From positions 267,605-331,604 of the forward strand of contig DATJXE010000003.1 of NCBI GenBank assembly GCA_035500505.1: a stretch of 64,000 nt of DNA, in the 5' to 3' direction. The position numbers and the translations under genes were made by a program. Below the pieces are notes generated by a model. It did not search any database. It was given only the letters and a program-made list of their open reading frames with translations, and was not told the origin of the DNA. Source of the stretch: Minisyncoccota bacterium (GTDB taxonomy: Bacteria > Patescibacteriota > Minisyncoccia > Phycocordibacterales > UBA2100). Within the stretch, counting starts at the first letter, position 1; each line of letters opens with the position of its first letter. This document shows positions 1,992-62,688 of the stretch, one piece after another.

Positions 1992-3914
1992 ATGCCGAAC
2001 TCCGACGACAACAAGAACAAAAAGCGCCCGCAAAGCGCTCCACCCCAAGGTCCTTCGATCTGGGTGCAGCTCGCGATCGCAGCGGTTGTGTTCCTCATTC
2101 TCTCGGCGGGATACTCGGCGGTGCGCGACTACGTCTCGCAGAAGAGTGAAACGGTCGCCATCTCACAGATAGCCGACGACATCAACGCCGGCAAAATATC
2201 CTCCATCACGGTCGAAGGGGACACGGTGACCGCGACGTACACCGACGGGACGAAGAAGCAATCGCACAAAGAAACCGAAGACTCGCTCACGCAGACACTC
2301 GTCAACTACGGGCTCTCGCCTGAAAAAATAGCCGCGGTCCAGGTAACGATCCAGGATCAGTCCGGGCTGGAATTCTGGACGCTGGAGCTGCTCCCCATCG
2401 TCATTCCGACGCTCATGATCCTCGGGCTCGTCTGGTACATCACGCGTCAGTTGCGCGGCGGAGGCGGCATGCAAGCGTTCACGTTCGGCCGTTCGCTCGC
2501 GCGGATGATATCACCGGAAGACTCCGCGCAGCGCGTCACGTTCGCCGACGTCGCAGGCGCGAAAGAAGCAAAAACGGAACTCCTTGAGATAGTCGACTTC
2601 TTGAAAAATCCCAAAAAATTCATCCAGATAGGCGCACGCATCCCCAAGGGCGTGCTTCTCATGGGTGCGCCGGGCACCGGCAAGACGCTGCTTGCGCGCG
2701 CGGTCGCGGGCGAAGCGGGCGTGCCGTTTTTCACGATATCCGGTTCGGAATTCGTCGAGATGTTCGTCGGTGTCGGCGCCTCCCGCGTGCGCGATCTGTT
2801 CCTGACGGCAAAAAAGGCGGCACCGGCGATCATTTTCGTGGACGAGATAGACGCGGTCGGGCGCGTGCGTGGCTCCGGAGTTGGCGGCGGCAACGATGAG
2901 CGCGAGCAAACACTGAACCAGATCCTCGTTGAGATGGACGGCTTCGAGCCGGCCGAAAAAGTCATCGTCATGGCGGCGACCAACCGTCCAGACGTCCTTG
3001 ACCCGGCGCTCTTGCGCCCTGGCCGTTTTGACCGCCGCGTCGTCATCGACCTGCCCGATAGAAAAGACCGCGAGGACATTCTCATGACGCATGCGCGCAA
3101 AAAGCCTTTGGGCGCCGACGTGAAGCTCACGGTCATCGCGGAAAGGACGCCCGGGTTCAGTGGCGCTGACCTTGCCAATTTGATGAATGAAGCAGCCATT
3201 CTTGCCGCGCGGGAAAACCGCAAAGAAATAACGCAGTACGACCTCATTCGTTCGATAGAAAAAGTCATGCTCGGGCCGGAGCGCCGCTCGCACGTGTTGA
3301 ACACGAAGGAAAAGGAGATAACTGCATACCACGAAGCCGGGCACGCGCTCGTCGCATCGGTCTTGCCGCACGCCGATCCCGTGCACAAGATCTCCATCAT
3401 CTCGCGCGGCCGCGCCGCCGGATACACGCTGAAACTCCCGCTCGACGAGCGCCGTATGCAATCGCGCAAGGAATTCCTCGATGACATCGCGGTGAGCCTG
3501 GGCGGTTTCCTTGCGGAGAAGACCGTCTTCGGTGACATCACGACGGGAGCCTCGAACGACTTGCAGGTACTGACCGCGCTCGCGCGCAACATGGTCGCGC
3601 GCTTCGGCATGTCGGACAAAATGGGACCCGTCGCTTTTGCGGCAAGCGCGCGGCAAGCGCTTTTCGGCGAGGGCGTCGAAGAGGAAGCGTCGCAGGAAGT
3701 TGCCGCGCAGATAGACGCTGAAGTGAGAAAGATAATCGAAGGCGCGCAGAAGAAAGCGGAGGGTGTTCTGAAGAAGCACCGCAAGACACTGGATGCGATC
3801 GCACAGAGGCTCGTGGAGGTGGAAACCATCGAGCGCGAAGAGTTCGAGGACATCCTGATAGCGCACGGGATCACGCCGAAGAAAAAAGAGGTCATCGAGC
3901 CGCCGCTCGTGTAA
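1992..3914 (+). CDS. ftsH: ATP-dependent zinc metalloprotease FtsH
   Basis: N-terminal TMs; Walker A GAPGTGKT; AAA SRH region; HEAGHAL zinc motif. Confidence 0.95.
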
Positions 3915-3919
3915 ACGGA

Positions 3920-3948
3920 ACACTCGCGAACCTCCGGCTCGCGAGTGT
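3920..3948. terminator. 10-bp perfect hairpin between convergent ftsH and downstream ORF
   Basis: ACACTCGCGA ... TCGCGAGTGT inverted repeat; no clear T-run. Confidence 0.35.
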
Positions 3949-5446: not shown

Positions 5447-6739
5447 ATGAGCACGCTTCTCATCCGCGGCGGACACGTGATAGACCCGAAGAACGGTATC
5501 GACGGGCAGAACGACGTCTTTGTGCGCGACGGCAAGATCGCGGCAATTGGAAAAAAATTGAAAGAGAAGGCCGATAGGGAGATAGACGCCAAGGGCCTCG
5601 TCGTGACGCCCGGTCTCATCGACCTCCACGTGCATTTCCGAGAGCCGGGCAGAGAAGACAAAGAAACACTGGAAACCGGTTCAAAAGCGGCGCTTGCCGG
5701 GGGCATCACCGCGGCGCTTGCGATGCCCAATTCGACCCCGGTCGCCGACAACCAGACCGTCATCGAATTCATTCTGAAGCGCTCACGCGAGCTCGACCTC
5801 ATCACCATTTACCCGACGGGAGCGATCACGAAAGCCCAAGAGGGAGTGATGCTCGCGGAGATAAACGAATTGAAGAATGCCGGCGCGCTCGCGGTGACCG
5901 ACGACGGGCACGACGTGCAGAAAGAAGGCGTGCTGAAGCGCGCGATGGAATACGCGAAAACGTGTGGCATACTCCTCATGAGCCACTGCGAAACGAAGGA
6001 CCTGACCGAAGACGGCGTTATGCACGAGGGTTGGGTCTCGACCCAACTCGGGCTCCCCGGCAGCCCCGCGCTCTCCGAGGACATGGCCGTGTACAAGAAT
6101 ATTTTGCTTGCGGAGAAGACCGGTGCGCGACTACATCTCATGCACAACTCAACCGCAGGCGCCATTCGCGCGATACGCGAGGCAAAAGCGCGCGGCGCCA
6201 AGAACATCACTGCCGAAGTGTCCGTCCAGCACTTCGCGCTTACCGATGAAGAATGCATGGGCTACAACACCAACGCAAAAATGTATCCGCCACTTCGTTC
6301 GCAGGAGCACCTCGACGCGGTAATAACGGGTATCAAGGACGGCACAATAGACGCGTTCACGACCGATCACGCGCCGCACATCGAGCCGGAAAAGCTCAAA
6401 GCCTTCCAGGATGCCGCGTTCGGCAGCGTCGGGCTCGAGACGAGCTTCGCGGTCATGTACACCTACCTCGTGAAGCCAAAACACCTCTCGCTCGCGAAGG
6501 GCATAGAAAAAATGACGAGCGCACCCGCGCGCATCGTGGGGCTCGACAAGGGCCATCTCTCTGTAGGGGCCGACGCCGACATCGCGATATTCGACACGGA
6601 CAAGACATGGACGGTCGACGAAAAGAAATTCTTCTCGAAAGGCAAGAGCTCCGCGTTCATCGGCAAAAAACTCACCGGCAAAGCCGTGTATACGATAGTC
6701 GGCGGCGCGGTGAAATACGAGAACGGCGCCATCGTGTAG
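5447..6739 (+). CDS. pyrC: dihydroorotase
   Basis: DLHVHFREPG metal-binding signature of cyclic amidohydrolases; follows pyrB. Confidence 0.9.
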   Translation: MSTLLIRGGHVIDPKNGIDGQNDVFVRDGKIAAIGKKLKEKADREIDAKGLVVTPGLIDLHVHFREPGREDKETLETGSKAALAGGITAALAMPNSTPVADNQTVIEFILKRSRELDLITIYPTGAITKAQEGVMLAEINELKNAGALAVTDDGHDVQKEGVLKRAMEYAKTCGILLMSHCETKDLTEDGVMHEGWVSTQLGLPGSPALSEDMAVYKNILLAEKTGARLHLMHNSTAGAIRAIREAKARGAKNITAEVSVQHFALTDEECMGYNTNAKMYPPLRSQEHLDAVITGIKDGTIDAFTTDHAPHIEPEKLKAFQDAAFGSVGLETSFAVMYTYLVKPKHLSLAKGIEKMTSAPARIVGLDKGHLSVGADADIAIFDTDKTWTVDEKKFFSKGKSSAFIGKKLTGKAVYTIVGGAVKYENGAIV

Positions 6740-7977: not shown

Positions 7978-8041
7978 AGCGAGTGGTCATTGAAAATGTG
8001 TGTCCGTCTGTAAGCACAGCTTTCATACGGGGCGCTCGGAA

Positions 8042-8068
8042 AAAATGAGAATATGGTATTCTCATTTT
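8042..8068 (+). terminator. AT-rich perfect hairpin followed by T-run
   Basis: AAAATGAGAATA tgg TATTCTCATTTT then GTT; lies between the 5' tRNA half and the nested tRNA. Confidence 0.4.
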
Positions 8069-8079
8069 GTTCCTCGCTA

Positions 8080-8153
8080 CCGTCTGTAGCTCAATTGGTT
8101 AGAGCACCGAGCTTATACCTCGGGGGTTCCTGGTTCGAGTCCAGGCAGACGGA
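8080..8153 (+). tRNA. tRNA with anticodon UAU (Ile, AUA-decoding)
   Basis: CCGTCTG TA GCTC AATTGGTTA GAGC A CCGAG CTTATAC CTCGG GGGTT CCTGG TTCGAGT CCAGG CAGACGG A; canonical cloverleaf, anticodon loop C-U-UAU-A-C. Confidence 0.8.
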
Positions 8154-8197
8154 CAGACATTTTCACTTGACCCGAGCGAACCAATCACACGAAGTAT

Positions 8198-8233
8198 CCT
8201 CGGGGGTTCTTGGTTCGAGTCCAAGCGGGCGGA
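8198..8233 (+). other. 3' half of the interrupted tRNA paralogue (anticodon stem 3' strand, variable loop, T-arm, acceptor 3' strand)
   Basis: C CTCGG GGGTT CTTGG TTCGAGT CCAAG CGGGCGG A; acceptor CGGGCGG pairs perfectly with CCGCCCG at 7914-7920 and the T-stem CTTGG/CCAAG is self-consistent. Confidence 0.5.
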
Positions 8234-8259
8234 CAAAAAGACCGTGGTACCATGCCGAA

Positions 8260-8511
8260 ATGGAATCGCGTGGAGAAAAGATATGGAACACGATAGTGCA
8301 GGTATGTTTACCGAGCCTTACGGTGCTTGGATTTTTCTTGACCGCATCGAAGCTTCCGCAATACGGTGTCATCGTCGGATTGGTCTCTGAAATTTTCTGG
8401 GCGTACGCTTCATACCGGTCGTGGAAGGAAGGACAGTGGGGGATCGCGGTCACAACGACCGTTGTGACCATTATCTTTATTTACGGGATACTCAACTACT
8501 GGTTCTTCTGA
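8260..8511 (+). CDS. small two-TM membrane protein, possible PnuC-like fragment
   Basis: 84 aa; Trp-rich TM motifs (EIFWAYASYRSW) recall the PnuC N-terminus. The upstream part of ORF 8053-8511 overlaps tRNAs and is discounted. Confidence 0.4.
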   Translation: MESRGEKIWNTIVQVCLPSLTVLGFFLTASKLPQYGVIVGLVSEIFWAYASYRSWKEGQWGIAVTTTVVTIIFIYGILNYWFF

Positions 8512-8512
8512 T

Positions 8513-8977
8513 ATGGCACACATCCACGAGAAGATAGATTTTACCGTAACTGTTTTCGTCGTATATCGCCATAAAGTTCTCCTGCGCAAGCACGAAAAGT
8601 ATGGTTTGTGGCTCGCACCCGGCGGGCATGTCGAACTCGACGAAGATCCGACGCAAGCCGCACTAAGGGAGGTGAAAGAGGAGGTCGGCCTCGATTTGAT
8701 ATTGGTCGGCAACCCAATACCACCGATCGTTGGTACGAAACGATACCGACAACTTCTTCCGCCGAAATACTTAAACAGGCATATTGCGGATAATAATGGA
8801 CACGAACATGTCGATTCCGTGTACTTTGCTCGTTCGGAAACAGACGTGATCATCCCAGAGGACCCTTCCGACGAATGCCGTTGGTTGACGAAAGAAGAGG
8901 TTGAGAAGAACGAACTCAGTATCCCCGAGGATGTGCGATGGTATGCACTCGATGCCCTCAAAGAGCTCGCTTCGTGA
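8513..8977 (+). CDS. NUDIX hydrolase
   Basis: Nudix box GGHVELDEDPTQAALREVKEEVGL (GX5EX7REUXEEXGU). Confidence 0.9.
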   Translation: MAHIHEKIDFTVTVFVVYRHKVLLRKHEKYGLWLAPGGHVELDEDPTQAALREVKEEVGLDLILVGNPIPPIVGTKRYRQLLPPKYLNRHIADNNGHEHVDSVYFARSETDVIIPEDPSDECRWLTKEEVEKNELSIPEDVRWYALDALKELAS

Positions 8978-9026
8978 GTGTGCATAGGCGCGTTGCGCCT
9001 CCTGGGGGTCGTGCCACAATACGACC

Positions 9027-15283: not shown

Positions 15284-15970
15284 ATGGAACGAAGCACTCA
15301 AATGTGGCTCGTCGGCGGATTCATCGTTGTTGTCGTCGCGGTCGTCGTTATCGCGGCGGTGGCCTCGCAGGGCGCGCAGCCGGGCACGACGTTCGTCGCG
15401 ACCACGGTGCCCGCGATAGACTCGACCGATCACGTGAAAGGCGACACGAACTCGAAGGTTTCCGTCATCGAGTACGGCGATTTTGAGTGTCCGGCGTGCG
15501 GTGAGTGGGAGCCCATCGTCGAGCAGGTCGAGGCCGACTACGGCAACCGCGTCGAGTTCGTCTTCCGCAACTTCCCGCTCTACCAGATCCACCCCAACGC
15601 GAAGATCGCGGCGCAGGCCGCAGAGGCCGCCGGCTTGCAGGGCAAATATTGGGAAATGCACGACCTTCTCTACAAGAACCAGAACAACTGGGTCAACGCC
15701 TCGAATAACAGCGTCGTTTCGCAGTTCTTCGACGGATACGCGCAATCGCTCGGGCTCGACGTGACGAAATTCAACGCCGACATAACCTCTTCCGCCGTCA
15801 TCGCGCGCGTGCAGCGCGACATCGATTCCGGCGACACTGCAAAAATAGACCACACGCCGACCTTCTTCGTGGACCTTGCCCAGATCCAGAATCCGACAGG
15901 CCTGCAGCAATTCGAACAGGTCATCGACCAGGCGCTCGCGTCGTCGAGCGCCGCAACCTCGACCAAATAA
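15284..15970 (+). CDS. DsbA-family thiol:disulfide oxidoreductase (membrane-anchored)
   Basis: N-terminal TM; CPAC active site within a thioredoxin fold (EYGDFECPACGEWEP). Confidence 0.8.
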   Translation: MERSTQMWLVGGFIVVVVAVVVIAAVASQGAQPGTTFVATTVPAIDSTDHVKGDTNSKVSVIEYGDFECPACGEWEPIVEQVEADYGNRVEFVFRNFPLYQIHPNAKIAAQAAEAAGLQGKYWEMHDLLYKNQNNWVNASNNSVVSQFFDGYAQSLGLDVTKFNADITSSAVIARVQRDIDSGDTAKIDHTPTFFVDLAQIQNPTGLQQFEQVIDQALASSSAATSTK

Positions 15971-15971
15971 C

Positions 15972-16508
15972 ATGTCTGCGTTCGCTTCGACGCTTATCTA
16001 CCTGATGGCGCTCGGCACCGTCCTGCTTGATGCGGCCATCGTCGTAAAGGTGTTCGCGCTTTTCCACCGACCTTCACGCGCGCAGATCGTCCGCGGCGGG
16101 CGCAGCTACGGCCTTCTTGCGATATTCATTCTCTCGGCCCTTTCGATCGCGGGGACGCTTTTCATGCAATATGCGGGCGCCCTCCCGCCCTGCGTTCTGT
16201 GCTGGTGGCAGCGGATCTTCATGTATCCGATCGCCATCATCTCGCTCATCGCGTTCATCAAGAACGCGAAACTATCCGACATCGCCGATTACGTGCTCGC
16301 GCTCTCGTTCCTGGGTGCCTTAGTCGCTTTGTACCAGCACCTCTTGCAGGTGTTGCCGCAAGGCTCGCTCATTCCGTGCGACGCGACGAACGATTGTGCG
16401 GTGCGCAGCGTCTTCTACTTCAACTTCGTCACCATTCCCTGGATGGCTCTCACCGTGTTCGCCGCCGTGTTCTTGATAGCGTTCATCGGGCGAAGATATC
16501 GCTCGTAG
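15972..16508 (+). CDS. dsbB: disulfide bond formation protein B-like
   Basis: 4 TM protein with the PPCVLCWWQRI Cys pair and a second Cys pair (CDATNDC) in the periplasmic loop; immediately follows the DsbA-like gene. Confidence 0.7.
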   Translation: MSAFASTLIYLMALGTVLLDAAIVVKVFALFHRPSRAQIVRGGRSYGLLAIFILSALSIAGTLFMQYAGALPPCVLCWWQRIFMYPIAIISLIAFIKNAKLSDIADYVLALSFLGALVALYQHLLQVLPQGSLIPCDATNDCAVRSVFYFNFVTIPWMALTVFAAVFLIAFIGRRYRS

Positions 16509-16524
16509 TACAATACGTCTCCAC

Positions 16525-17565
16525 ATGGGGTCGAGGAGGAGATCGGCGTTGTTCGGCGCACTCGCTGTCGCGTTGTTTTTCGTTTCCGGTGCGGCATTGT
16601 ATGCGGCGCAGCAAGGCGCATTGCCGCAAGAGGAGAAGCCCGCATCTTCACAAGGCGCCGGTGCGCCGCCGGGCTCTCTTTCGCTCATCATCGAGCCGCA
16701 GGCGGGAACTGCGCCGCTTCAAGAGATGATAAAAAGCGCATCAAGTTCCATCGACCTTGTGATGTACGAATTCGAGGATAAAAATATTGAACAGCTCCTG
16801 GCGCGGCGCGCGAAAGAGGGAATAGCCGTACGCGTCATTCTCGACAACGGATATTTCGGCGAAGGTTCGAGCATCAACGAACAGGCATTCGATTACCTGC
16901 GTTCGAGTGGCGTCTCCGTTCACTGGTCGCCGGAGTATTTCGCCCTCACGCACCAAAAGACGCTCGTGGTCGACGACAATGAAGCGCTCATCATGACATT
17001 CAACCTCACGCCGAAGTACTACAAGTCGGACAGAGATTTTGGCGTCGTAGACACTGATCTAAATGACGTCGCAGCGATAAAAGAAGCTTTCGATTCCGAT
17101 TGGGACGGGAACGCTATCTCGGCGCACAGCGGCGATGACCTCGTGTGGAGTCCGCATTCGCGTGAGCAACTCCTTGCGCTCATCAACGATGCACGGACGT
17201 CGCTTCAGATCTACAACGAGGAAATGGCGGATGCGGGCGTAGTTGCCGCACTCGAGAGTGCGGCGGCCCGCGGCGTTGATGTCGAGATCGTCATGACGTA
17301 TTCGAGCAACTGGAAGCCTGCGTTCCAAGCTCTGTCGGACGCCGGCGCGCATATCCGCACCTACAAAGCGACGGCGCCGCTCTACATCCATGCGAAGGTC
17401 GTTATCGCCGACGGCGCACAAGCGTTCGTCGGCTCGGAAAATTTCTCTTCCACCTCGCTCGATCAGAACCGGGAATTGGGACTCATCCTTTCCGACCCCG
17501 ACGTCGTTGCCTCTCTGCAACGAACGTTCGAACAAGATCGGCAAAGCGCCGCACCGTTCCAGTAG
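16525..17565 (+). CDS. phospholipase D-like (HKD) domain protein, secreted
   Basis: Signal peptide; two HKD motifs (THQKTLVVDD; IHAKVVIADG...GSENFS). Confidence 0.85.
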   Translation: MGSRRRSALFGALAVALFFVSGAALYAAQQGALPQEEKPASSQGAGAPPGSLSLIIEPQAGTAPLQEMIKSASSSIDLVMYEFEDKNIEQLLARRAKEGIAVRVILDNGYFGEGSSINEQAFDYLRSSGVSVHWSPEYFALTHQKTLVVDDNEALIMTFNLTPKYYKSDRDFGVVDTDLNDVAAIKEAFDSDWDGNAISAHSGDDLVWSPHSREQLLALINDARTSLQIYNEEMADAGVVAALESAAARGVDVEIVMTYSSNWKPAFQALSDAGAHIRTYKATAPLYIHAKVVIADGAQAFVGSENFSSTSLDQNRELGLILSDPDVVASLQRTFEQDRQSAAPFQ

Positions 17566-17582
17566 CTGCTACAATATCGGTC

Positions 17583-18650
17583 ATGGCAGCCCCGATATAT
17601 GAAAAACTGCTCGCGCAGCATCTAGAGATATTGGAAAATTTACAGTACGAATCCGGCCTTTTCGCCGCATCGAAAAAGGGCGAGGGAGAGGGCTACGACA
17701 AAGCGTGGCTGCGCGATAATTTCTACGAATGCCTCGCATTTGAGGTCGTAGGCGACTACGAGACCGTACAGAAAACGTATCGCGCCGTTCTCGAAATATT
17801 CAAGAAACACGAATATAAAATAGATTATGCGATATCGAAAAAGCCCGAACATACCCACCAATACATCCATCCGCGCTACAACCCGCAAACATTCGAAGAG
17901 TATTGGGAAGAATGGGGGAACAAGCAGAACGACTCCATCGGCTGCGTCCTCTTTGAGATCGGCGAACTTGAGAAGAAACAAAAAGGACTGATAGTCCAGA
18001 ACGACGACGATCGCCGCGTACTCCAAAAGCTCGTCTGGTATCTCTCGACGCTCGAATACTGGCAGGACCCCGACTCCGGCATGTGGGAAGAGAACGAGGA
18101 GGTGCACGCTTCATCCGTCGGTGCGTGCCTCGCGGGGCTCATTTCCATACGGAACGTCGAAGGCGTCGAGGTGCCGGAAGAACTCATCGAACGCGGCAAG
18201 GTCGCGCTTGCAGCCATCTTGCCTCGCGAGTCGAAGGGAAAATTCGTCGACCTCGCACTCCTATCGCTCATTTGGCCATATCACGTGACCGATGCGGCGC
18301 AAACAAAGATGATACTCGAGCATGTCGAATATCATTTGCTGCGCGAGCGCGGCGTTATCCGCTACAAAGGCGACCGTTACTACAACAAGAACGAGGACGG
18401 CTGGTCGGAAGAGGCCGAGTGGACGTTCGGCCTAAGCTGGCTTTCCATCATTTACGAGAAACTCGGCGACAAAGAAAAGGCCAAGGAATACCTGGAGCAA
18501 GCGAAGGCGACCTCAACGAAACGCGGCCTTCCGGAACTCTACTTCTCGAACTCGACGAAATACAACGACAACACGCCCTTGGGGTGGAGTGAATCGCTTT
18601 TCATCATCGCGCTGCACGACGTGAACGAAAAGCGGATGGGGAAGCGCTAG
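17583..18650 (+). CDS. glycoside hydrolase family 15-like (glucoamylase/trehalase-type) protein
   Basis: AWLRDN catalytic-region motif and overall (alpha/alpha)6-like pattern; preceded by TGCTACAAT -10. Confidence 0.65.
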   Translation: MAAPIYEKLLAQHLEILENLQYESGLFAASKKGEGEGYDKAWLRDNFYECLAFEVVGDYETVQKTYRAVLEIFKKHEYKIDYAISKKPEHTHQYIHPRYNPQTFEEYWEEWGNKQNDSIGCVLFEIGELEKKQKGLIVQNDDDRRVLQKLVWYLSTLEYWQDPDSGMWEENEEVHASSVGACLAGLISIRNVEGVEVPEELIERGKVALAAILPRESKGKFVDLALLSLIWPYHVTDAAQTKMILEHVEYHLLRERGVIRYKGDRYYNKNEDGWSEEAEWTFGLSWLSIIYEKLGDKEKAKEYLEQAKATSTKRGLPELYFSNSTKYNDNTPLGWSESLFIIALHDVNEKRMGKR

Positions 18651-19028
18651 CTACTTCACCTGGGAATAGTCGTAGAATACGGCTTCGACGTTGTGGCCGT
18701 CCAGGTCGTGGACGAACGCGGCATAGTAGCCGGGCCAGTAATCCTTGCGATAGCCGGGCTTGCCGTTGTCCTTGCCGCCCGCCTTGAGCGCGGCGTCGTA
18801 GAAAGACTGCACCGCATCCTTGTTTTTGACCGCAAAGGCGACGTGCAGAGGAACAACGCCCTTTTCGTTCGTGCCGATCCAAAAGTCGGTATTTTCACCG
18901 TCGCTGAAGCCCGCGGCCTCGCCGTATTCCATGTTCTGCGTGTAGCCGATGGCGCCGAGGACGGCAGTGTAAAACTTCTTGGACTTTTTGTAATTGCTAA
19001 CCGGGACGCTGGTGTGTGCGATGACCAT
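18651..19028 (-). CDS. VOC/glyoxalase-family protein
   Basis: Paired beta-alpha-beta-beta-beta modules; pattern HVAFAV...FVHDLDGHNVEAV. Confidence 0.7.
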   Translation of the reverse strand: MVIAHTSVPVSNYKKSKKFYTAVLGAIGYTQNMEYGEAAGFSDGENTDFWIGTNEKGVVPLHVAFAVKNKDAVQSFYDAALKAGGKDNGKPGYRKDYWPGYYAAFVHDLDGHNVEAVFYDYSQVK

Positions 19029-19161
19029 AGGGATCGATTTGGTGAGGAATAACTTCTTCAGCCTACCGCCGTCATATAAAAGCGCAATGAACATCGGAAT
19101 GGGCACATACGACAACAGACCCCGAAGGGTCTGTTGTGGGAGATATTTTTCAAGTTCGGTG

Positions 19162-20214
19162 TCAGTTGTCGCCGTGCCCGTTCCCGTGGTCGTTGCCCTG
19201 GCCCTTTCCTTGGTAGCCCGGGAAGAGGAACCAATTTTGGGTGGACGTTGCGGTGGTACTTGTGGCGTTGTTGCCCAATCCGGCTCCGCAGTTGCGCTGG
19301 AAGAAGCCGCGCGTCAGAGGTCCGACGCTCCCGTCGGTGTTGCTCGACGAGGCGATGCCATAGAGCATCTGGAAACGCATCATTGCGCGCGCCGTGAGCG
19401 GGCCGAAGAAGCCGGTGGGCGCGCCCGAGAAGCCGAAGCGCGAATCTCCCGCGAGCATCTGCTGAAGCTGCCGCACGTCGTCGCCGTCATCCCCGATGCG
19501 GAGATTGCGATTGAGCGCGACGCAGAAGCCTTTGCCGATCTGGCCGGGCGGAATGACCGGAGGCGTGGTCGTAGGATGGTTGAATTGACCTGCAAGAAGA
19601 TTCTTGAGCTGCAGCTGGAGCTGTAAGATCTGTTGCAGAAGCGCTTGTATCTGCGCCTGCACCGACGACGATGTGCTCGTCGCGATCACGACGACGATCG
19701 TTTGTGCCGTGGTCGTCCCAACGGGATTCACTGCGGTGAGGGTGTACGTCGTAGTCGTTGTCGGAGAGACAACGTACGACGTGCTCCCGACAGCGCCAAT
19801 GCCGTTATCGAGCGAGGTCGAACTCGCGTTGCTCACGGTCCACGAGAGGGTCGAGCTCTGGCCGCTCGTGATGGAAGCGGGACTCGCCGTGAACGATGCG
19901 ATCGAAGGAAGCACCGGCTGCGCGACCATAGCCGAGCAGGTGCTTGTCGCGACCGAAGAGGACGCGTCCGTCGCCTGGATGCCTATCGAGTAAGTGCCGG
20001 GCGAGTAGGAGAGTGTTTGCGACGTCGATGTGCTGCCGTTGCCCCACAAAAGGGCGATGGGCGCCACGCCTCCCGTGGCGCTCGCGGTCCAGGTGATGCT
20101 CGCGGTCGACGGGACCCCGGAGCAGGATACTGATAATGGCGTGTCGGCATTCGCGATCCCAAAAGAGAGCGCGAGCGCGAGCGCCGCTGAAATGCTAAGC
20201 GTACGAATGTTCAT
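19162..20214 (-). CDS. secreted Ig/PKD-like repeat protein with C-terminal PG-binding domain
   Basis: Signal peptide MNIRTLSISAALALALSFGIANA; Thr/Ser-rich beta repeats; C-terminal LRIGDDGDDVRQLQQML...GFFGPLTARAMMRFQ. Confidence 0.75.
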   Translation of the reverse strand: MNIRTLSISAALALALSFGIANADTPLSVSCSGVPSTASITWTASATGGVAPIALLWGNGSTSTSQTLSYSPGTYSIGIQATDASSSVATSTCSAMVAQPVLPSIASFTASPASITSGQSSTLSWTVSNASSTSLDNGIGAVGSTSYVVSPTTTTTYTLTAVNPVGTTTAQTIVVVIATSTSSSVQAQIQALLQQILQLQLQLKNLLAGQFNHPTTTPPVIPPGQIGKGFCVALNRNLRIGDDGDDVRQLQQMLAGDSRFGFSGAPTGFFGPLTARAMMRFQMLYGIASSSNTDGSVGPLTRGFFQRNCGAGLGNNATSTTATSTQNWFLFPGYQGKGQGNDHGNGHGDN

Positions 20215-20487
20215 ACAATGCGGTGTTGCAATGTGTACTGACTCCAATTTACTGATAAATAAACCGAACACATTTCGCCCGTATGCCAGCAAAAGGCCGC
20301 ATACAAGCTCTCAGTATAGACGATTCCCAGAGCGCTTCATTACAGATTCACTTTAGGTACCAAGGTCCACCTATAAAAGATATCGACTGCGGGCAGGGTC
20401 GGTCTAGAACCAGAGCCCGTCAAGCCACATCAGCACTTCTTAGCGAATTGACGACTCGGCAAAATGAGGGGGAGCGGTCGCGATCTA

Positions 20488-21072
20488 TTATCCGTTATCC
20501 GGCGGAGTCGGAGTTGTACTAACCATAAACGTCACTGTCTGAGCAGTTGGATCGATAGCGGTCACTTTTAGTTTTACGATCCCTGTGGAAGAATTTGTAT
20601 CGTACCATTCTTCGTCACCCCATTTAGCAGACCAGCTAAGATAAGAACCAATTCCTGCACCAGGTCCATACTCATCCTGAGTAAGTCCCCACGTTTTTGC
20701 TGTTTCAGCAAGCCCGGCCTCCATGGTGCTGCTGGCATCAATGACATTCACGATTGTGGACGGATATTGCCCACCCGTAACGGATTTGAGTTTAATAGTT
20801 ACGCCGCCTGGACCATCAGTAGCGATTTGACCCATGCCAAGCGTAAAAGCAGTACCGTCAACAGCTTGAAAAGTTTTCGGGTTGGTGGAATTTGTTTGAC
20901 TCGTTTTCGCATTTTGTTGAACAGGCTGTTGTGTAGCAATTTCGGTAGTCTGCTGAGTTGACGTTTGCGTTGTTTCCGAAATCGCAGGCGTGTTGGATTG
21001 ACCCACGTACCACCACGCTACTGCCGCAAGAACAATCAAAATGACGATTCCTATCCAGGTATTTCGACTCAT
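20488..21072 (-). CDS. membrane-anchored hypothetical protein (N-terminal TM, Thr/Gln-rich linker, globular C-domain)
   Basis: ORF with TM WIGIVILIVLAAVAWWYV; low-GC island. Confidence 0.6.
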   Translation of the reverse strand: MSRNTWIGIVILIVLAAVAWWYVGQSNTPAISETTQTSTQQTTEIATQQPVQQNAKTSQTNSTNPKTFQAVDGTAFTLGMGQIATDGPGGVTIKLKSVTGGQYPSTIVNVIDASSTMEAGLAETAKTWGLTQDEYGPGAGIGSYLSWSAKWGDEEWYDTNSSTGIVKLKVTAIDPTAQTVTFMVSTTPTPPDNG

Positions 21073-21299
21073 GAGTTTATTAGAAAGGAGTAAGTGAACG
21101 CCTCAACTCTAGCTTACACAACCGCAAAGTAAAGCAACTTGCAAACTCACGAATGGCGAACGGTCGCCCACTGCCTCAAGAGCATTGGTCACTCGATACC
21201 ATGCCCATTCCTGCGGGCTACCCGAGATTCAACAATTATAGCTCAACCCCCATAAGGGTATTTTAGAGGATTCTTAGGAGCCATGCCGAGGTACTCGGG

Positions 21300-21566
21300 T
21301 CATTGCGATTTATTTGTATTTGACTGAATAGCATCCCCAGCTTTGTAAGTCCCGGGGCCGATGTAAACGTTGCCACCGTTACCTTGGACACTTCCATCTC
21401 CGGCGCGAATTATTATATCGCCTCCTTTATTCGAAGGTGTTTGGGTGTTTTTAGGCTTACTTGAAAAGTAATTAGCCACAAGCGCGATAGTCAAAGGCAC
21501 GAGAACCACCGCTACCCAAAATTCTGGAGTTTTAAGGAAGTTCCACATCTTTGAAATTTTACTCAT
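21300..21566 (-). CDS. small TM protein with Gly-rich C-terminus
   Basis: 88 aa; TM FWVAVVLVPLTIALVANYF; GDGSVQGNGGNVYIGPG tail. Confidence 0.5.
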   Translation of the reverse strand: MSKISKMWNFLKTPEFWVAVVLVPLTIALVANYFSSKPKNTQTPSNKGGDIIIRAGDGSVQGNGGNVYIGPGTYKAGDAIQSNTNKSQ

Positions 21567-21698
21567 ATAGTAAGTAGGCGGGTCTACCGATAAATAGTAT
21601 TCACTGCGGTGAAGGTCGGTTGCGAACTAACCCGTTCCAATCAGTGTAAGGGTTTTTCGAGCGACTTTGGAACTAGCCAAAACTAGGGGGAACGGTCG

Positions 21699-22376
21699 CT
21701 ACTCCAAATCACTTTTCCCGATGTTACAGACTGAACAAAGGGTCTGGAGATTTTCGAGAATTGTCTCGCCCCCGTTCGCCCATGCTTTTATGTGATCTAC
21801 ATGGAGAATGATACTTGGATCAGTGGCAGGAGAACGTCCACAATTTTTGCACTTAAAATTATCGCGCCTCATTACTACAAAACGAAGTCGCCAATTTATC
21901 TCACGCTTAGTTTTGTGTTTGGAAGAAGGTTCAACTTGTAGATTTTCAATCGAACTTTCAGAAGCGACATCTGCGTCATTATTTATATATGCTACAAAAC
22001 TTTCTAAGCCTTTCATCCATGTACCAAAGTGCTTTTTGTAGGTCCCTGCGGAGTATTTTGAGAGCGGTGGGAACATATCTGCCTGTATCGGCTGGTGCCC
22101 CAATTTTGTCCAGACCTCTTCAAGATTTTCAAAAAGCTCCTCGTCACTTACGCGAATATTTTTTTGGTGTCTTGCCATATTAAGACCCGCACGCTCGTGG
22201 GCCTTTGCCCAACCCCCTAACCTATCAGCCATGTTCGAACTATCGAATTTTCCAAACTCGTCCTGTTGCTCTCTCGTAACAAAATCCTGATTTAATTTAG
22301 CAGCAGTATTTTTCAGATCAGCGATGAGCTCATCTTCTGGCGTATTTCTATGGACTTTTTTGAGCTCAAATTTCAT
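21699..22376 (-). CDS. HNH endonuclease domain protein
   Basis: C-terminal CKNCG...HVDHIKAWANGGETILENLQTLCSVCN (HNH motif); N-terminal domain unrecognised; low GC. Confidence 0.85.
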   Translation of the reverse strand: MKFELKKVHRNTPEDELIADLKNTAAKLNQDFVTREQQDEFGKFDSSNMADRLGGWAKAHERAGLNMARHQKNIRVSDEELFENLEEVWTKLGHQPIQADMFPPLSKYSAGTYKKHFGTWMKGLESFVAYINNDADVASESSIENLQVEPSSKHKTKREINWRLRFVVMRRDNFKCKNCGRSPATDPSIILHVDHIKAWANGGETILENLQTLCSVCNIGKSDLE

Positions 22377-22442
22377 AGCCCCATCTTAGCTTGGTTATAG
22401 GAAATATGGCACTCGGTCTCATAACACCGGTGCTCAATCCTG

Positions 22443-22529
22443 CGGAGAGGGAGGGATTCGAACCCTCGGACCGGTTTCCCGGTCAACACATTAGCAGTGT
22501 GTTGCATTCGACCGCTCTGCCACCTCTCC
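22443..22529 (-). tRNA. tRNA-Ser (GCU)
   Basis: GGAGAGG...anticodon loop CUGCUAA, long variable arm GACCGGGAAACCGGTC, T-arm GAGGGTTCGAATCCCTC. Confidence 0.9.
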
Positions 22530-22611
22530 CCATACGCCCCGGCATCGGGCGTACAATTGCGAGCAATTGTTTTAGCCCGAGCACACAAGATACCACGAGC
22601 GATACTTCTTT

Positions 22612-23487
22612 TCACATCGCCGCGGGAGCGGGCACTTGATCCTCAGCTGCGGAGCGCAGGCCCGGGATAACCTTATCGGTAAAGTTGTCAGCGAGGTCGT
22701 GGAGTTCGAGGAAGTCTTCGCGTTTGTAAATGGGCCCGGTTCGCGTCAAATACACTTTGTTGCCGACTATTTCACAGTTGTATCCCGAGAACTTCTGTAT
22801 CAAATCTTGCATGATATCTGGCTCGAATATCTCGCGTGCCTGCACTTGCGCGTCATTGCCGACGAGAAGCGTGAAGTGCTTCCCGAAGTCGCCTTCGAGA
22901 TTCACGGTGCTCATGCCGGCGACGGAACCGAATTCATTCGTCCATGAAGCGGGCTTGAGAATAATATGTGGCAAAGCGTTCGTGTACGTGAGCTCGAATA
23001 CAGCTTTCGTGTAAGTGCGGGCATTCTTTCCGTAACCGACCGTATATTGATATGTGAAGATCCGCACTGGATAAGAGTGATATGTCCCGGAAATCACGTC
23101 ATACACCCTCTGACTATGGCCGATCGCGAGGGACGTGCCAACGACGCTCTCCACGGGCGCGCTTTCCTCGTACGTATAACCGAGGGTGCTCGCTATTTGT
23201 TCGACAAAAAGATGTTGAACGCGCAAGCGATAGTAGTTGTAGAGCCAAGAAATACCTAAGATGGGGAGTATCGGGAGGATGATGATCCTCGCGTCAAACG
23301 CGGCGGGGTTCGCCAAATACAGTAGGTAGATCTCGTACCCCGAGACGGCGCTGATCGCAAGACAGAGGATCGCGACGCCGCCGAACAATAGTGCGTGTTG
23401 GTGAATGATATACGTGTTTGTGCTCGACCGCACATCCTCGATCGAACCGCCGACCTGACTCTGTAATGCTTCGTCCGCCCCATCCAT
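22612..23487 (-). CDS. hypothetical membrane protein
   Basis: 291-aa ORF, N-terminal TMs; family not recognised. Confidence 0.6.
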   Translation of the reverse strand: MDGADEALQSQVGGSIEDVRSSTNTYIIHQHALLFGGVAILCLAISAVSGYEIYLLYLANPAAFDARIIILPILPILGISWLYNYYRLRVQHLFVEQIASTLGYTYEESAPVESVVGTSLAIGHSQRVYDVISGTYHSYPVRIFTYQYTVGYGKNARTYTKAVFELTYTNALPHIILKPASWTNEFGSVAGMSTVNLEGDFGKHFTLLVGNDAQVQAREIFEPDIMQDLIQKFSGYNCEIVGNKVYLTRTGPIYKREDFLELHDLADNFTDKVIPGLRSAAEDQVPAPAAM

Positions 23488-23509
23488 GGCCTAATGGTAC
23501 CATCACCCG

Positions 23510-24412
23510 ATGCGCACGTTATTTGCAATCCTTAAATGGCGCTTCGGGCTTTCGCGTGCAAAAGCGAGGGAGCGGACGGCGTACGTTCCGGAATACGGGA
23601 TGCCGGACATCCATAGTATCGAGGAACCGGACCCCAACAAGATACAACTCACCTGGGTCGGGCATTCGACCTTCCTCATCCAGGTTGCGGGGGTGAATAT
23701 ATTGACCGACCCGATATGGAGCGAGCGGGCGTCGCCCGTGTCGTGGGCGGGGCCAAAACGTTTTGCACGACCGGGGATACGTTTTGAGGATCTACCAAAA
23801 ATTGATCTCGTTCTTATCAGTCACACGCATTATGATCATCTTGATCGGCCGACCATTTTGAAATTGGGGAACGCGCCGCGTTACATATTGCAGGAGCGTA
23901 CGAAGTGGTGGTTCGCGAGCGAAGGCATTACCAACGCATCAGAATTGTCTTGGTGGGAAACGGAAAAACGCGGAGCGGTCGCAGTAACCGCCGTCCCAGC
24001 CAAGCATTGGTCCAAGCGAGGACTCTTCCGCACCAACGAAGCGGGATGGGGCGGGTTCGTCATTGAGTCTCCCGCCGGAATTATTTATTTCGCGGGCGAT
24101 ACCGGCTATCACGATGAGTATTTCAAGGAGATAGGAAAACGTATCCCGAACATCGACCTCGCGCTCATTCCGATAGGCGCGTACTTTCCGCGTGCGATAT
24201 TCGGGCGTTTTCACGTGGACCCGCGCGAAGCGATACTGGTGCATACGGAAGTGAAGGCGAAGACCTCCATCGGCATGCATTGGGGCGTCTTCGAGCTCAC
24301 GCAAGAACCGCTTAGCGAGCCACCGCGGCGCCTCGCCGAAGAGCGTTCCGTGTTGGGAATCTCTCCGCAAGAATTTTCGGTGATGAAGATAGGAGAGACG
24401 CGGCTTCTCTGA
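23510..24412 (+). CDS. MBL-fold metallo-hydrolase
   Basis: HxHxDH motif LISHTHYDHLD. Confidence 0.85.
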   Translation: MRTLFAILKWRFGLSRAKARERTAYVPEYGMPDIHSIEEPDPNKIQLTWVGHSTFLIQVAGVNILTDPIWSERASPVSWAGPKRFARPGIRFEDLPKIDLVLISHTHYDHLDRPTILKLGNAPRYILQERTKWWFASEGITNASELSWWETEKRGAVAVTAVPAKHWSKRGLFRTNEAGWGGFVIESPAGIIYFAGDTGYHDEYFKEIGKRIPNIDLALIPIGAYFPRAIFGRFHVDPREAILVHTEVKAKTSIGMHWGVFELTQEPLSEPPRRLAEERSVLGISPQEFSVMKIGETRLL

Positions 24413-61007: not shown

Positions 61008-61078
61008 TGGGAGATCGTCTAATGGTAGGACAACTGACTCTGGATCAGTTAATCTAGGTTCGAGTCCTAGTCTCCCAG
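61008..61078 (+). tRNA. tRNA-Gln (CUG)
   Basis: TGGGAGATCGTCTAATGGTAGGACAACTGACTCTGGATCAGTTAATCTAGGTTCGAGTCCTAGTCTCCCAG; U1:A72 as in many bacterial tRNA-Gln. Confidence 0.85.
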
Positions 61079-62674
61079 CAGAGTTGGACTTTGAGAGCAG
61101 GTTTGCTCGAAAAGTCGTTGTTTTTCCTTGGTATCTATCGGTTCGAACCGTTTGTGTATCTCGCGCACCTCGTTTGAGATTTTCCTGACCGGGAATAGAC
61201 AGTTTTCCGTATCAATGCTCAGTATTTTGTTTTTGACCGTGAGGTTCGAACCGAGAGCTGCCAGAATGCTGCGACGCACCTCGAGGTTACCTTTCTCCAG
61301 CTTCCACTTCGCTTGTTCGATGAACGCGAACATCTCATCGGCTGTGTTCGCCCAACGCTCCACGCGCTCGGTCGTATTGTCGTAGTTGCTATCAAGCTGT
61401 TTCTTTTCGGCAAGTAGCTTCGCTTTCTTTTCCGCGTACTCCTCCGGCCCAATCTCTCCGGCGGCACGCATGTCGGTCAGGCCGTCGAGTTTTGCGAGAC
61501 ACGTCTTGTATGCCTTTTGTTGCGTTTGCACAAGCGCGTTACGTTGCTGGGCCTCTTTCGCATTCTGCTCCCTGAACCATTTCATCGCGAAGCTGTGGAA
61601 CTCCGGCGGGATCTCGAGCCGGTCGATCTCAGCGACGATTTGCTCCTTGAGTTTGGTTTCCTCAATACTACCTTGCGAACAGTCCGGCTTGATGCGTTTG
61701 GTGCAGTGATAGTAGACGTATCGGTGGACCTTGCCATTTTTCGGTCGCTTGAACTTCAGCTCGGCCGTGATAGCAGCACCGCACTCTCCGCAGCGCATCA
61801 TGCCGACAAAGTCGAACACATGAGTTTTTGGGCGCGGCCGGCCTTTGCGTCCGAGGATGACTTGAACTCGGTCAAACTCCTCCTCGGTGATGATGGCTTC
61901 GTGATTGCCGCGATACCAGTTGCCGGTCTTGAGCGGATACTCGAACATGCCATAGTAGACCGGGTTCGAAAAAAGATAGTACAGCGTGTTCCGGCTCATT
62001 TTCTTGCCGTTCGGCATGCGGAAACCCCAGACCCCATTCACCTCATTCAAAAGCTGCGGAACAGTGTAGGTGCCGGTCAGCATCAAGTCCCACATCTTTC
62101 TCACGAGCGGTAGTCGTTCAGGATCGCTCAACAACTTCTTGCTGCCGCGGGGAGTATGTTTGTCGTTCATGTAACCGACCGGCGCGTGGTTCGGCACGTC
62201 GCCGAGTTTCGCTTTCTTTTCGAGACCGCGCTTCACGTCTAATCCTTTTTTGTCGTTCTCCATTTTGGCTTGGCCGCAGGAGAGCGAGAGCATGAACTTG
62301 TCTATCGGAGTGTTTCGGAACGTCTGGCCCGGCGTGACTATCTCGCGGAGTTTGTCGCGGTCCATGAGGTCGATGAGTAGTGCCGCGTCCATCGCGTTGC
62401 GTGAGAGGCGATCAGCGTGCCACACGATGATGCCTTGTATTTCGCTGCGCTCTATGGCGTGCAGCATGTCGGAGAACCGCGGGCGATGGTTCGCCACCTT
62501 GGCCGACTTCGCCTCGCTGAACACGTGCTCGCTTTTTATTTTCGCACCGAGCGACTTCGCGATCTCCTCCGCTTTGTCGGCTTGCGCGTCGAGTGAGAGC
62601 ACCTGCCGGTCCTCGCTTTCAGTGGACTTGCGGCAGTAGGTTCCGTATTGGAGTTTAGTAGCTGTATCCTTCAT
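61067..62674 (-). CDS. large serine recombinase
   Basis: N-terminal resolvase catalytic domain (YCRKSTESEDRQ...SLDAQ), recombinase domain, zinc ribbon (CGECGAAI...YYHC), C-terminal coiled coil; 3' end overlaps tRNA-Gln by ~12 nt on the opposite strand. Confidence 0.9.
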   Translation of the reverse strand: MKDTATKLQYGTYCRKSTESEDRQVLSLDAQADKAEEIAKSLGAKIKSEHVFSEAKSAKVANHRPRFSDMLHAIERSEIQGIIVWHADRLSRNAMDAALLIDLMDRDKLREIVTPGQTFRNTPIDKFMLSLSCGQAKMENDKKGLDVKRGLEKKAKLGDVPNHAPVGYMNDKHTPRGSKKLLSDPERLPLVRKMWDLMLTGTYTVPQLLNEVNGVWGFRMPNGKKMSRNTLYYLFSNPVYYGMFEYPLKTGNWYRGNHEAIITEEEFDRVQVILGRKGRPRPKTHVFDFVGMMRCGECGAAITAELKFKRPKNGKVHRYVYYHCTKRIKPDCSQGSIEETKLKEQIVAEIDRLEIPPEFHSFAMKWFREQNAKEAQQRNALVQTQQKAYKTCLAKLDGLTDMRAAGEIGPEEYAEKKAKLLAEKKQLDSNYDNTTERVERWANTADEMFAFIEQAKWKLEKGNLEVRRSILAALGSNLTVKNKILSIDTENCLFPVRKISNEVREIHKRFEPIDTKEKQRLFEQTCSQSPTLLGD

Positions 62675-62688
62675 ACCTTCATTATGCG

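Follow-up and report, generated by a model that had tools for sequence, protein, structure and literature searches.

A decayed, integrase-less patchwork of small inserted units beside the tRNA-Ser(GCU) gene of a Candidatus Paceibacterota genome

Tandem accretion of islands at tRNA and transfer-messenger RNA (tmRNA) genes has been described for the ssrA-linked islands of Dehalococcoides (PMC3146451), and in streptococci the accretion of integrative and conjugative elements, integrative and mobilizable elements and cis-mobilizable elements (CIMEs) has been reviewed (PMC5704250). Free-standing homing endonucleases offer a second point of comparison: the GIY-YIG enzyme SegB of phage T4 is encoded beside tRNA genes (PMC2330249), and T4 MobE is a free-standing HNH enzyme (PMC2790892). 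Here we analyze a low-GC islet of about 2.2 kb that abuts the 3' end of a tRNA-Ser(GCU) gene in a Candidatus Paceibacterota genome (contig DATJXE010000003.1, positions 267,605 to 331,604). This 64-kb stretch is referred to below as the window, and positions are counted from its first nucleotide. The islet encodes an HNH endonuclease and two membrane proteins, and is a decayed patchwork, serially accreted, linked to the tRNA gene and devoid of an integrase. We consider it probable, if only just, that small units were inserted serially at tRNA-Ser by an enzyme acting in trans, that the HNH gene is selfish and favors tRNA-Ser sites, and that the membrane-protein genes came along as cargo.

Foreign DNA beside tRNA-Ser(GCU)

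A preliminary description of this DNA, made from the sequence alone, had reported about 2.2 kb of AT-rich sequence that reaches up to the tRNA-Ser(GCU) 3' end and contains three co-oriented genes, and calculation against the whole window, which is the reference for all composition figures, bears this out. The islet as delimited by GC content and by GC at third codon positions (GC3) extends from 20215 to 22441 and has a GC content of 45.6%, compared with a mean of 57.5% for the window. In a 400-nt sliding profile, GC falls from 0.61-0.64 at 19200-20199 to 0.42-0.49 at 20200-22400 and then rises to 0.53-0.55 beyond. Among 2227-nt segments taken over the 64 kb (mean 0.575, standard deviation 0.027) the minimum, 0.455, starts at 20201 and lies ~4.4 standard deviations low, so that the islet is the lowest such stretch in the window. 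Codon usage agrees with this picture, GC3 being 0.395-0.404 in the three islet genes versus 0.64-0.78 in eight flanking genes. The AT richness is confirmed as far beyond chance, and the 2.2 kb are foreign, horizontally acquired DNA.

The islet ends at 22441, directly against the 3' end of its native anchor, the tRNA-Ser(GCU) gene at 22442-22529 on the minus strand (ARAGORN; Rfam tRNA, 60.5 bits). All three open reading frames (ORFs) lie on the minus strand as well. Farthest from the tRNA is a gene for a 194-amino-acid (aa) protein with an N-terminal transmembrane (TM) helix and a Thr/Gln-rich linker (20488-21072); closer to the tRNA come the genes for an 88-aa protein with a TM helix and a Gly-rich tail (21300-21566) and for the 225-aa HNH protein (21699-22376). 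No integrase or recombinase is encoded at 19000-24000, as judged from the ORF list and Pfam, and the nearest recombinases are found at 61067-63795, ~40 kb off. A scan for promoters and terminators returned counts no different from those in shuffled sequences. A second Rfam match at the anchor, 'Plastid-psbl-rps4 3'UTR' at 22443-22494 on the plus strand (54.7 bits, gathering score 68), was rejected as an artefact, since it is the antisense strand of tRNA-Ser.

The closest relative of this region is L137, a 329-kb metagenomic contig that is syntenic with the window: a GH15-like gene (88% identity between the two proteins), a variable stretch, tRNA-Ser (97% identity over 117 nt) and a gene for a protein of the metallo-beta-lactamase (MBL) fold follow one another in both. 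The distance from the GH15-like gene to the tRNA is 7.6 kb in L137 versus 3.8 kb in the window. The L137 stretch that abuts the tRNA 3' end (~15400-18600) is likewise low in GC (0.44-0.49), and its genes encode a 178-aa TM-anchored protein, an LCM-type methyltransferase, two small TM proteins and a DUF805 protein; it contains no HNH gene, no 88-aa gene and no recombinase, and its middle unit has genes on both strands. The possibility that the islet consists of conserved core genes of the lineage, which the preliminary description had raised against its own view, is not borne out, as the syntenic L137 lacks the HNH and 88-aa genes. The description given there, a decayed island without an integrase, is a fair one. 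The relative carries different genes at this site. The contigs of two more distant relatives, L008 (1-206), which also has tRNA-Ser(GCU), and L009 (1-86), break off no more than 120 nt from the 3' end of tRNA-Ser, which is what a site that varies among strains would produce. These two alone were informative in a scan of the genome collection with the MBL protein, which otherwise returned mostly distant phyla. Overall, the 3' side of tRNA-Ser(GCU) appears to be a recombination hot spot.

Evidence for insertion at this site comes from the flank of the tRNA gene in L137. As the key query we took the L137 tRNA-Ser 3' end with 60 nt of downstream flank, and a search against the window gave two matches. 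One is the window's own tRNA flank (22447-22413), which is 91% identical over 35 nt and matches only to ~+35; the other, with 74.6% identity over 63 nt (E 2.3e-7), falls in the spacer that separates the 194-aa gene from the 88-aa gene, at 21216-21155. In a three-way alignment, the tRNA flank of the window tracks L137 to ...GACCGA and then turns HNH-specific. The internal copy, in contrast, begins with a degenerate T-arm and acceptor (GTTGAATCTCGGGTAGCCCGCAG, 21233-21211) and then follows the L137 flank well past this point of divergence; a fragment of the ~100-nt repeat described below (21272-21242) is found just upstream of it. Because the internal copy continues the L137 flank past the divergence, the segment 21217-22412 is a ~1.2-kb insertion at the ancestral tRNA/flank junction. 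Besides the HNH and 88-aa genes, it contains one full copy (rep B) and one partial copy of the ~100-nt repeat.

On the tRNA side the insertion is bordered by an attL-like junction (22413-22465, minus strand), which consists of the tRNA T-arm, the acceptor 3' strand and ~29-35 nt of flank in common with the HNH-less L137. On the distal side it is bordered by an attR-like scar that we term rep M (21155-21272, minus strand), made up of a partial repeat (21242-21272), a core resembling the tRNA 3' end (21211-21233) and the ancestral flank (21155-21216). The alignment with L137 shows 21217-22412 bounded by a decayed direct repeat of ~55 nt, from the T-arm to ~+35 nt, whose two copies would represent attL and attR. 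By the same comparison the 194-aa gene, with the ancestral flank before it and a further repeat (rep A) behind it, is shown to sit in the older slot, where L137 has a different TM-anchored gene. Behind each islet gene lies a scar, and those units closest to the tRNA appear to be the newest. Rep M, taken together with its flank, is the only copy of the tRNA 3' end that is statistically solid. The repeat finder detected no exact tRNA-derived direct repeat in the window; the copy was found only through the L137 flank. A direct repeat of the tRNA-Ser 3' end had been anticipated near 20200-20500. It does exist in decayed form, as the ~100-nt repeats at 20381-20483 (rep A) and 21598-21701 (rep B) and as a clearer copy, with flank, at 21155-21233.

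Two further observations concern tRNA genes and their surroundings. The 5' side of tRNA-Ser is also variable: 22612-23487 of the window encodes a 291-aa protein without a Pfam match, the corresponding side in L137 (18788-19525) encodes a 245-aa lycopene-cyclase-like membrane protein and is low in GC, and in L008 (208-828) there is a 206-aa ORF that is Nudix-like by eye. A tRNA-Ile gene with the anticodon TAT, which is uncommon in bacteria, is located at 8080-8154 of the window, where GC dips to 0.505 (8001-9000).

The ~100-nt repeats

Rep A (20381-20483) and rep B (TAGCGACCG...; 21598-21701), both on the minus strand, form a direct repeat of ~100-120 nt with 66% identity (E ~1e-8, repeat finder and BLAST). 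Rep A, the distal scar of the islet, starts 7 nt past the stop codon of the 194-aa gene (nhmmer E 6e-27), and rep B begins at the stop codon of the HNH gene (nhmmer E 7e-26). The L137 islet has two copies that are 75-78% identical to rep A, at 16004-16104 and 17914-18011; the second begins at the stop codon of the 178-aa gene, and one of the two does not follow a co-oriented gene. All four full copies, two per genome, are in the orientation of the tRNA, with E values of 1e-25 to 1e-27 in an nhmmer profile search. The repeat is specific to this locus and lineage: the four-copy profile turned up no further copy, either elsewhere in the window or among 2 Mb of fetched loci, and the partial repeat of rep M gave a weak match (E 0.27).

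Along its last ~25 nt (GTTCTAGACCGACCCTCACCGCAG) the repeat is colinear with the tRNA-Ser T-arm and 3' acceptor strand (GTTCGAATCCCTCCCTCTCCGCAG), the two agreeing at 18 of 24 positions. Consistent with a relationship, the repeat profile ranks the tRNA 3' end high among its weak matches in both genomes, with the strand and the profile positions correct. A search of the extracted tRNAs with the repeat model (nhmmer) gave no match. The resemblance that rep A and rep B bear to this end of the tRNA is only suggestive.

Other identities for the repeat were tried. A coding function is ruled out by 1-nt indels and by stop codons in every frame, and a known RNA was rejected because Rfam (E<=1) returned only the tRNA and its antisense artefact. 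The predicted fold is no better than that of shuffled sequences on both strands (z +0.2 to +0.9), and the four-copy alignment has no conserved pairing, long hairpin or convincing covariation on either strand. A pattern scan of viral contigs with the 5' motif of the repeat found 0 matches; the 3' motif is too degenerate for such a scan, and its >120 matches were treated as chance without inspection.

The position of the repeats next to genes can be read in other ways. Since every gene of the islet has a repeat behind it that starts at its stop codon or within 7 nt of it, the repeats could be the recombination sites of an integron-like system of single-gene cassettes at tRNA-Ser, with the recombinase encoded elsewhere. 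The common orientation of all copies, the newest unit lying nearest the tRNA, and a cassette content that differs wholly between two close relatives while the repeats stay 75-78% conserved would all suit such a system. It is nevertheless very unlikely in our view, as we found no integron integrase, no attI and no hairpin-forming attC (z +0.2 to +0.9), the middle unit of L137 has genes on both strands, and the comparison covers two genomes and five sites only.

Alternatively, the repeats that abut stop codons could be regulatory or 3' untranslated sequences of a native, fast-evolving surface-protein locus whose low GC reflects a local mutational or selective bias. Here the 194-aa gene and the 178-aa gene of L137 (18009-18545) are of interest. 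They have an upstream flank and a downstream repeat in common, the N-termini of the two proteins are 27% identical (E 3e-4), and the 194-aa gene is the positional counterpart of the TM-anchored gene of L137, both genes being low in GC. Even so, we regard a native origin as highly improbable. The HNH protein has close relatives in other lineages of the Candidate Phyla Radiation (CPR) and is absent from L137, GC3 differs by 0.25-0.38 between the islet genes and their neighbors, the duplicated tRNA 3' end and flank mark an insertion, one of the repeats in L137 follows no gene of its own orientation, and the repeats have no terminator-like fold.

Short matches to parts of the repeat were also noted. 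An 18-nt copy of its 3' end (ACCCTCACCGCAGTGAAT), 17/18 identical to rep B, is located at 19726-19743 inside a gene for a peptidoglycan-binding protein and may be a relic or a chance match. The motif GGGCGACCGTT(C/A)GCC is kept in the ancestral tRNA flank of both genomes (window 21155-21167; L137 18610-18628). Three of the full repeats open with the sequence GCGACCGYT, whereas L137a, the fourth, has CCGACCGTT instead. The window contains six GCGACCGYT sites, of which three are inside the 2.2-kb islet, all on the minus strand, and the sequence may be a candidate protein-binding site.

The HNH gene, its neighbors and tRNA-Ser

The preliminary description had called the N-terminal domain of the HNH protein unrecognised. 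Pfam in fact matches PF18780 (HNH_repeat, 'homing endonuclease associated repeat') twice in this region (E 4e-22), with a PF01844 HNH match C-terminal of the repeats (E 9e-11), both models scoring above threshold, and the window protein is a plain member of this architecture of two PF18780 repeats and PF01844. The HNH domain includes a Cys4 zinc finger (C176/C179/C214/C217), and the four Cys residues, like H195, N209 and N218, are invariant across 27 aligned homologues, the window protein among them. Structure prediction, which had been proposed for the N-domain and for the C-terminal domain of the 194-aa protein, gave models of both proteins. The AlphaFold model of the HNH protein (pLDDT, the predicted local distance difference test score, 72) has an all-helical N-domain, but neither sequence nor fold searches found a solved structure in the PDB that matches it, and Foldseek gave only weak matches to HNH domains (best E 0.06). 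The AlphaFold2 single-sequence model of the 194-aa protein consists of a TM helix and ~8 strands with a beta-rich C-domain and, at a pLDDT of 54, is too poor for a fold search. In the searched literature, PF18780 comes without experimental characterisation or cleavage data, its single mention being in a structure-modelling paper.

We identified 4370 homologues that align with the window protein end to end. The best of these (80-96% identical) are from Magasanik-, Zambryski-, Davies- and Staskawicz-bacteria, and further homologues at ~63% identity come from a Woesearchaeota archaeon and an Aminicenantes metagenome-assembled genome (MAG). Viral contigs contain only two full-length relatives (44-48% identity), which indicates that the family is essentially cellular. 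Compared with six homologues, the window gene has 0.07-0.13 non-synonymous differences per site (pN) and saturated synonymous sites, and the protein is therefore under strong purifying selection. The low GC3 of the gene, set in a high-GC host, points to a low-GC donor as its source. At the DNA level the window resembles other HNH loci only over the ORF (22377-21695), and the distribution of the gene is sporadic in that the closest relative, L137, lacks it. The gene is one of a very widespread and strongly conserved set of free-standing PF18780-HNH genes found in CPR and DPANN genomes.

To describe the surroundings of the HNH gene we used ~13 distinct contexts, a small sample whose members are not fully independent. 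The neighbors encode XRE-type helix-turn-helix (HTH), DsrE-like, SHOCT, Fic and AbiU2 proteins. Recurrent among them are a 65-68-aa XRE-type HTH protein directly upstream and a 108-aa DsrE-like protein downstream, sometimes together with SHOCT. The HTH-HNH-DsrE unit of ~1.33 kb shows 97-98% DNA identity between differing flanks (L323 1584-2939; L328; L330), which indicates that it is mobile, and the HNH genes move either as ORF-sized units or as this 1.3-kb unit. A Type II restriction-modification system with a controller (XRE-type HTH protein and HNH restriction enzyme) was rejected: no methyltransferase gene is present in the window islet or in the HTH-HNH-DsrE(-SHOCT) units, and the window copy is without an HTH gene, no remnant of which was detected by tblastn upstream of the HNH gene.

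The ~75-100 nt that these units share upstream of the HTH gene include an apparent palindromic operator sequence. At another locus, L001, a perfect 46-nt inverted repeat (3875-3920 and 5528-5573) surrounds 1.6 kb without a called gene; this stretch is directly downstream of tRNA-Arg(GCG) and 0.4 kb upstream of an HTH-HNH pair.

Neither membrane protein of the islet belongs to this repertoire. The 88-aa protein has no match in Pfam, PHROGs, NCBIfam or PADLOC. It belongs to a real but tiny family of ~80-aa TM proteins, with 25 representatives among 1.84 billion (best 62% identity, E 9e-27) and a shared C-terminal Gly-rich motif, KGGDIIIKAGDGG..G.GGDI.IGPGTYKAGDA. The 194-aa protein has no homologue besides itself among 5.8 billion protein clusters, its own record being a hypothetical protein of a Candidatus Paceibacterota MAG. 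No relative of either protein occurs in the other ~13 HNH contexts. The insertion-site scars in the spacers between the three islet genes indicate that the genes arrived separately or as separate units, and we infer that the two membrane proteins are putative cargo, unrelated to the HNH gene.

These data bear on the suggestion in the preliminary description that the nuclease and two membrane partners form one module, perhaps a toxin or defence cassette. The three genes are indeed co-oriented, closely spaced and similarly low in GC, and SocA_Panacea, AbiU2 or Fic genes are present in some loci of HNH relatives. A single functional unit is still extremely unlikely: the 194-aa protein is an ORFan, the 88-aa family has 25 members, neither protein accompanies the HNH gene in any sampled context, so that the three-gene set was not recovered from other genomes, PADLOC gave generic HNH matches only, and the spacers of 132-227 nt carry insertion scars.

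What does recur beside the HNH gene is tRNA-Ser. In 6 of the ~13 contexts a tRNA-Ser gene is located directly upstream of the HNH gene and co-oriented with it, and four anticodons (GCU, CGA, GGA and UGA) are involved. The tRNA-Ser(GCU) of the window is 65 nt upstream of the HNH gene; the distance is 226 nt in L007 of Magasanikbacteria (CGA), 141 nt in L291/L292 (GGA), 102 nt in L294 of Daviesbacteria (UGA), 216 nt in L317-L321 (UGA) and 318 nt in L322 (GGA). By a rough estimate, the chance of such adjacency for a random gene is a few per thousand. The tRNA-Ser genes concerned have little in common beyond the conserved 3' end typical of tRNA-Ser. Copies of this end recur in the spacers: in L007 an exact 21-nt copy ends 65 nt before the HNH start codon, and L322 has an additional tRNA-Ser 3' fragment between the tRNA and the HNH gene. 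The spacers of L294 and L291 keep the C-terminal 29 and 18 residues of the HTH protein, respectively (tblastn E 5e-11 and 1e-4), indicating that HTH-HNH units came to adjoin the tRNA with differing degrees of truncation. Many of the homologues have no tRNA-Ser gene nearby. The recurrent adjacency suggests targeting of tRNA-Ser genes, and a putative preference of the HNH protein for the tRNA-Ser gene region would resemble the manner of homing endonucleases.

If the enzyme does recognise this region, it might drive insertion itself. The HNH protein would cut a tRNA-Ser gene or flank that lacks the HNH gene, and repair from a donor would copy the gene and its neighbors, leaving the repeats as by-products. 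In favor of such intron-less homing, 6 of ~13 contexts, with four anticodons, have the HNH gene immediately after tRNA-Ser and co-oriented with it; DNA similarity ends at the limits of the ORF; the retained length of the HTH ORF varies in the way of co-conversion tracts; and the gene is present in the window and absent from L137. The catalytic and zinc residues are intact and under strong purifying selection, and the window encodes ComF and PilM, which are linked to DNA uptake. A precedent exists in SegB in the tRNA gene cluster of T4 (PMC2330249). What this account leaves unexplained is the ~55-nt direct repeat around the HNH gene, rep B and the 88-aa gene, which double-strand-break repair does not make. 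Moreover, the older units (the 194-aa gene and all of the L137 islet) bear the same repeats without an HNH gene, many members of the family are away from tRNA-Ser, and cleavage by a PF18780 protein is absent from the searched literature. We regard nuclease-driven insertion as possible but doubtful. A broader proposal, that PF18780-HNH proteins act as tRNA-Ser-directed insertion or homing nucleases in the place of an integrase and that the ~100-nt repeats are the sites of an integrase-less cassette array, with integron-like logic and a different chemistry, seems unlikely to us.

The explanation we prefer is serial insertion by recombination. Small single-gene units would have been inserted one after another between the T-arm and ~+35 nt of tRNA-Ser, and the repeats would be attachment-site scars, each composed of an element arm and the tRNA 3' core. 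The recombinase would act in trans, candidates being the tyrosine integrase and the large serine recombinase ~40 kb away in the window. The HNH gene would be a selfish endonuclease gene, whose preference for tRNA-Ser would aid both arrival and persistence at such sites. Several points weigh against this explanation. The islet contains no recombinase, no intact integrase-bearing relative of its units was found, and units of 0.4-0.8 kb are unusually small for att-type elements. The repeat motif is absent from viral contigs, and the repeat is known from two genomes and five sites only, which gives low comparative power. Taken alone, rep A and rep B resemble the tRNA 3' end only weakly (shuffle p ~0.03-0.06 in one comparison and 0.025-0.04 in another), and the repeats might serve some other purpose, such as that of regulatory sites. 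Finally, the tRNA-Ser-HNH junction varies by genome, from 65 to 320 nt and with or without a remnant of the HTH ORF, which is a misfit with one precise attP.

The two recombinase genes are part of a second mobile element, at 61008-63795 of the window, where GC falls to ~0.52; it continues past the end of the window. The large serine recombinase (535 aa, 61067-62674, minus strand) has Resolvase, Recombinase, Zn_ribbon_recom and SHOCT domains, and its gene overlaps the 3' end of tRNA-Gln(CTG) (61008-61079). It is followed by the gene for the tyrosine integrase (368 aa, 62689-63795, minus strand; Pfam). The serine recombinase is close to one encoded beside an HTH-HNH-DsrE unit in L329 (phmmer E 6e-62).

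Taken alone, the islet is routine gene flux at a tRNA gene, in Patescibacteria/CPR genomes whose mobile elements are poorly catalogued. It also indicates that sub-kilobase single-gene units can accumulate beside a tRNA, each with a ~100-nt scar, in the absence of a recombinase in cis. If this is general, accretion of single-gene units would be one route of gene gain for very small genomes. If the HNH protein does recognise tRNA-Ser genes, this would account for the spread of the family across CPR and DPANN, and the enzyme would be a natural nuclease with a long, conserved target.

Relation to known systems

The islet most closely recalls tandem islands and CIME-type remnants. Like these it is located at the 3' end of a stable-RNA gene and is foreign in composition; successive units are marked by direct repeats derived from the 3' end of the RNA gene, with the newest adjoining the gene; the content varies among close relatives; and some units are without a recombinase. 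It differs in scale, with units of 0.4-1.3 kb and one gene each, and in its repeat, which is ~100 nt long and tRNA-like in only the last ~25 nt (plus flank). The islet repeats are, in addition, strongly decayed (66-78%), and no intact integrase-bearing parent was found. By the features used to recognise tRNA-linked islands, the islet has the location at the tRNA 3' end, the tRNA-3' direct repeats, and the atypical composition together with absence from a relative. An integrase of its own next to the att end was not found (19000-24000; the L137 islet likewise has none), and without a resident integrase the islet can be classed only as a remnant or a trans-mobilised unit.

Integron cassette arrays are similar in other respects. 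The islet, like these, is composed of short, co-oriented single-ORF units that each end in a repeat (60-140 nt in integrons), with insertion at a fixed proximal site and a highly variable content. In contrast to integrons, it has no IntI, attI or Pc, its anchor is a tRNA gene, and its repeats are alike in sequence and not in structure, with no attC hairpin (R''-L''/L'-R'). Membership among integrons was therefore rejected, on the integrase, attI and the attC hairpin.

The HNH gene is best compared with the free-standing homing endonucleases of phages, among which the F-Tfl enzymes encoded in the tRNA region of T5 are reportedly also found. In common with these, it is not embedded in an intron or intein, is sporadic in distribution, seems to move as an ORF with short flanks and is associated with tRNA genes. 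It has an intact core, sporadic mobility at the level of the ORF and a recurrent position at tRNA-Ser, as would be expected of a free-standing HNH homing gene. The islet differs from the phage cases in that the host is a cellular CPR genome, and the HNH family in that it has PF18780 repeats as a putative DNA-binding module and is unusually conserved (80-96% across CPR lineages). Two aspects are not described in the searched literature: the very small single-gene units with a ~100-nt scar, which rest on two genomes, and the tRNA-Ser adjacency of an abundant HNH family, which rests on 13 contexts. Overall, the islet and its HNH gene belong to kinds that are already known, the first to accreted tRNA-linked remnants and the second to free-standing HNH genes, and do not make up a new three-gene system.

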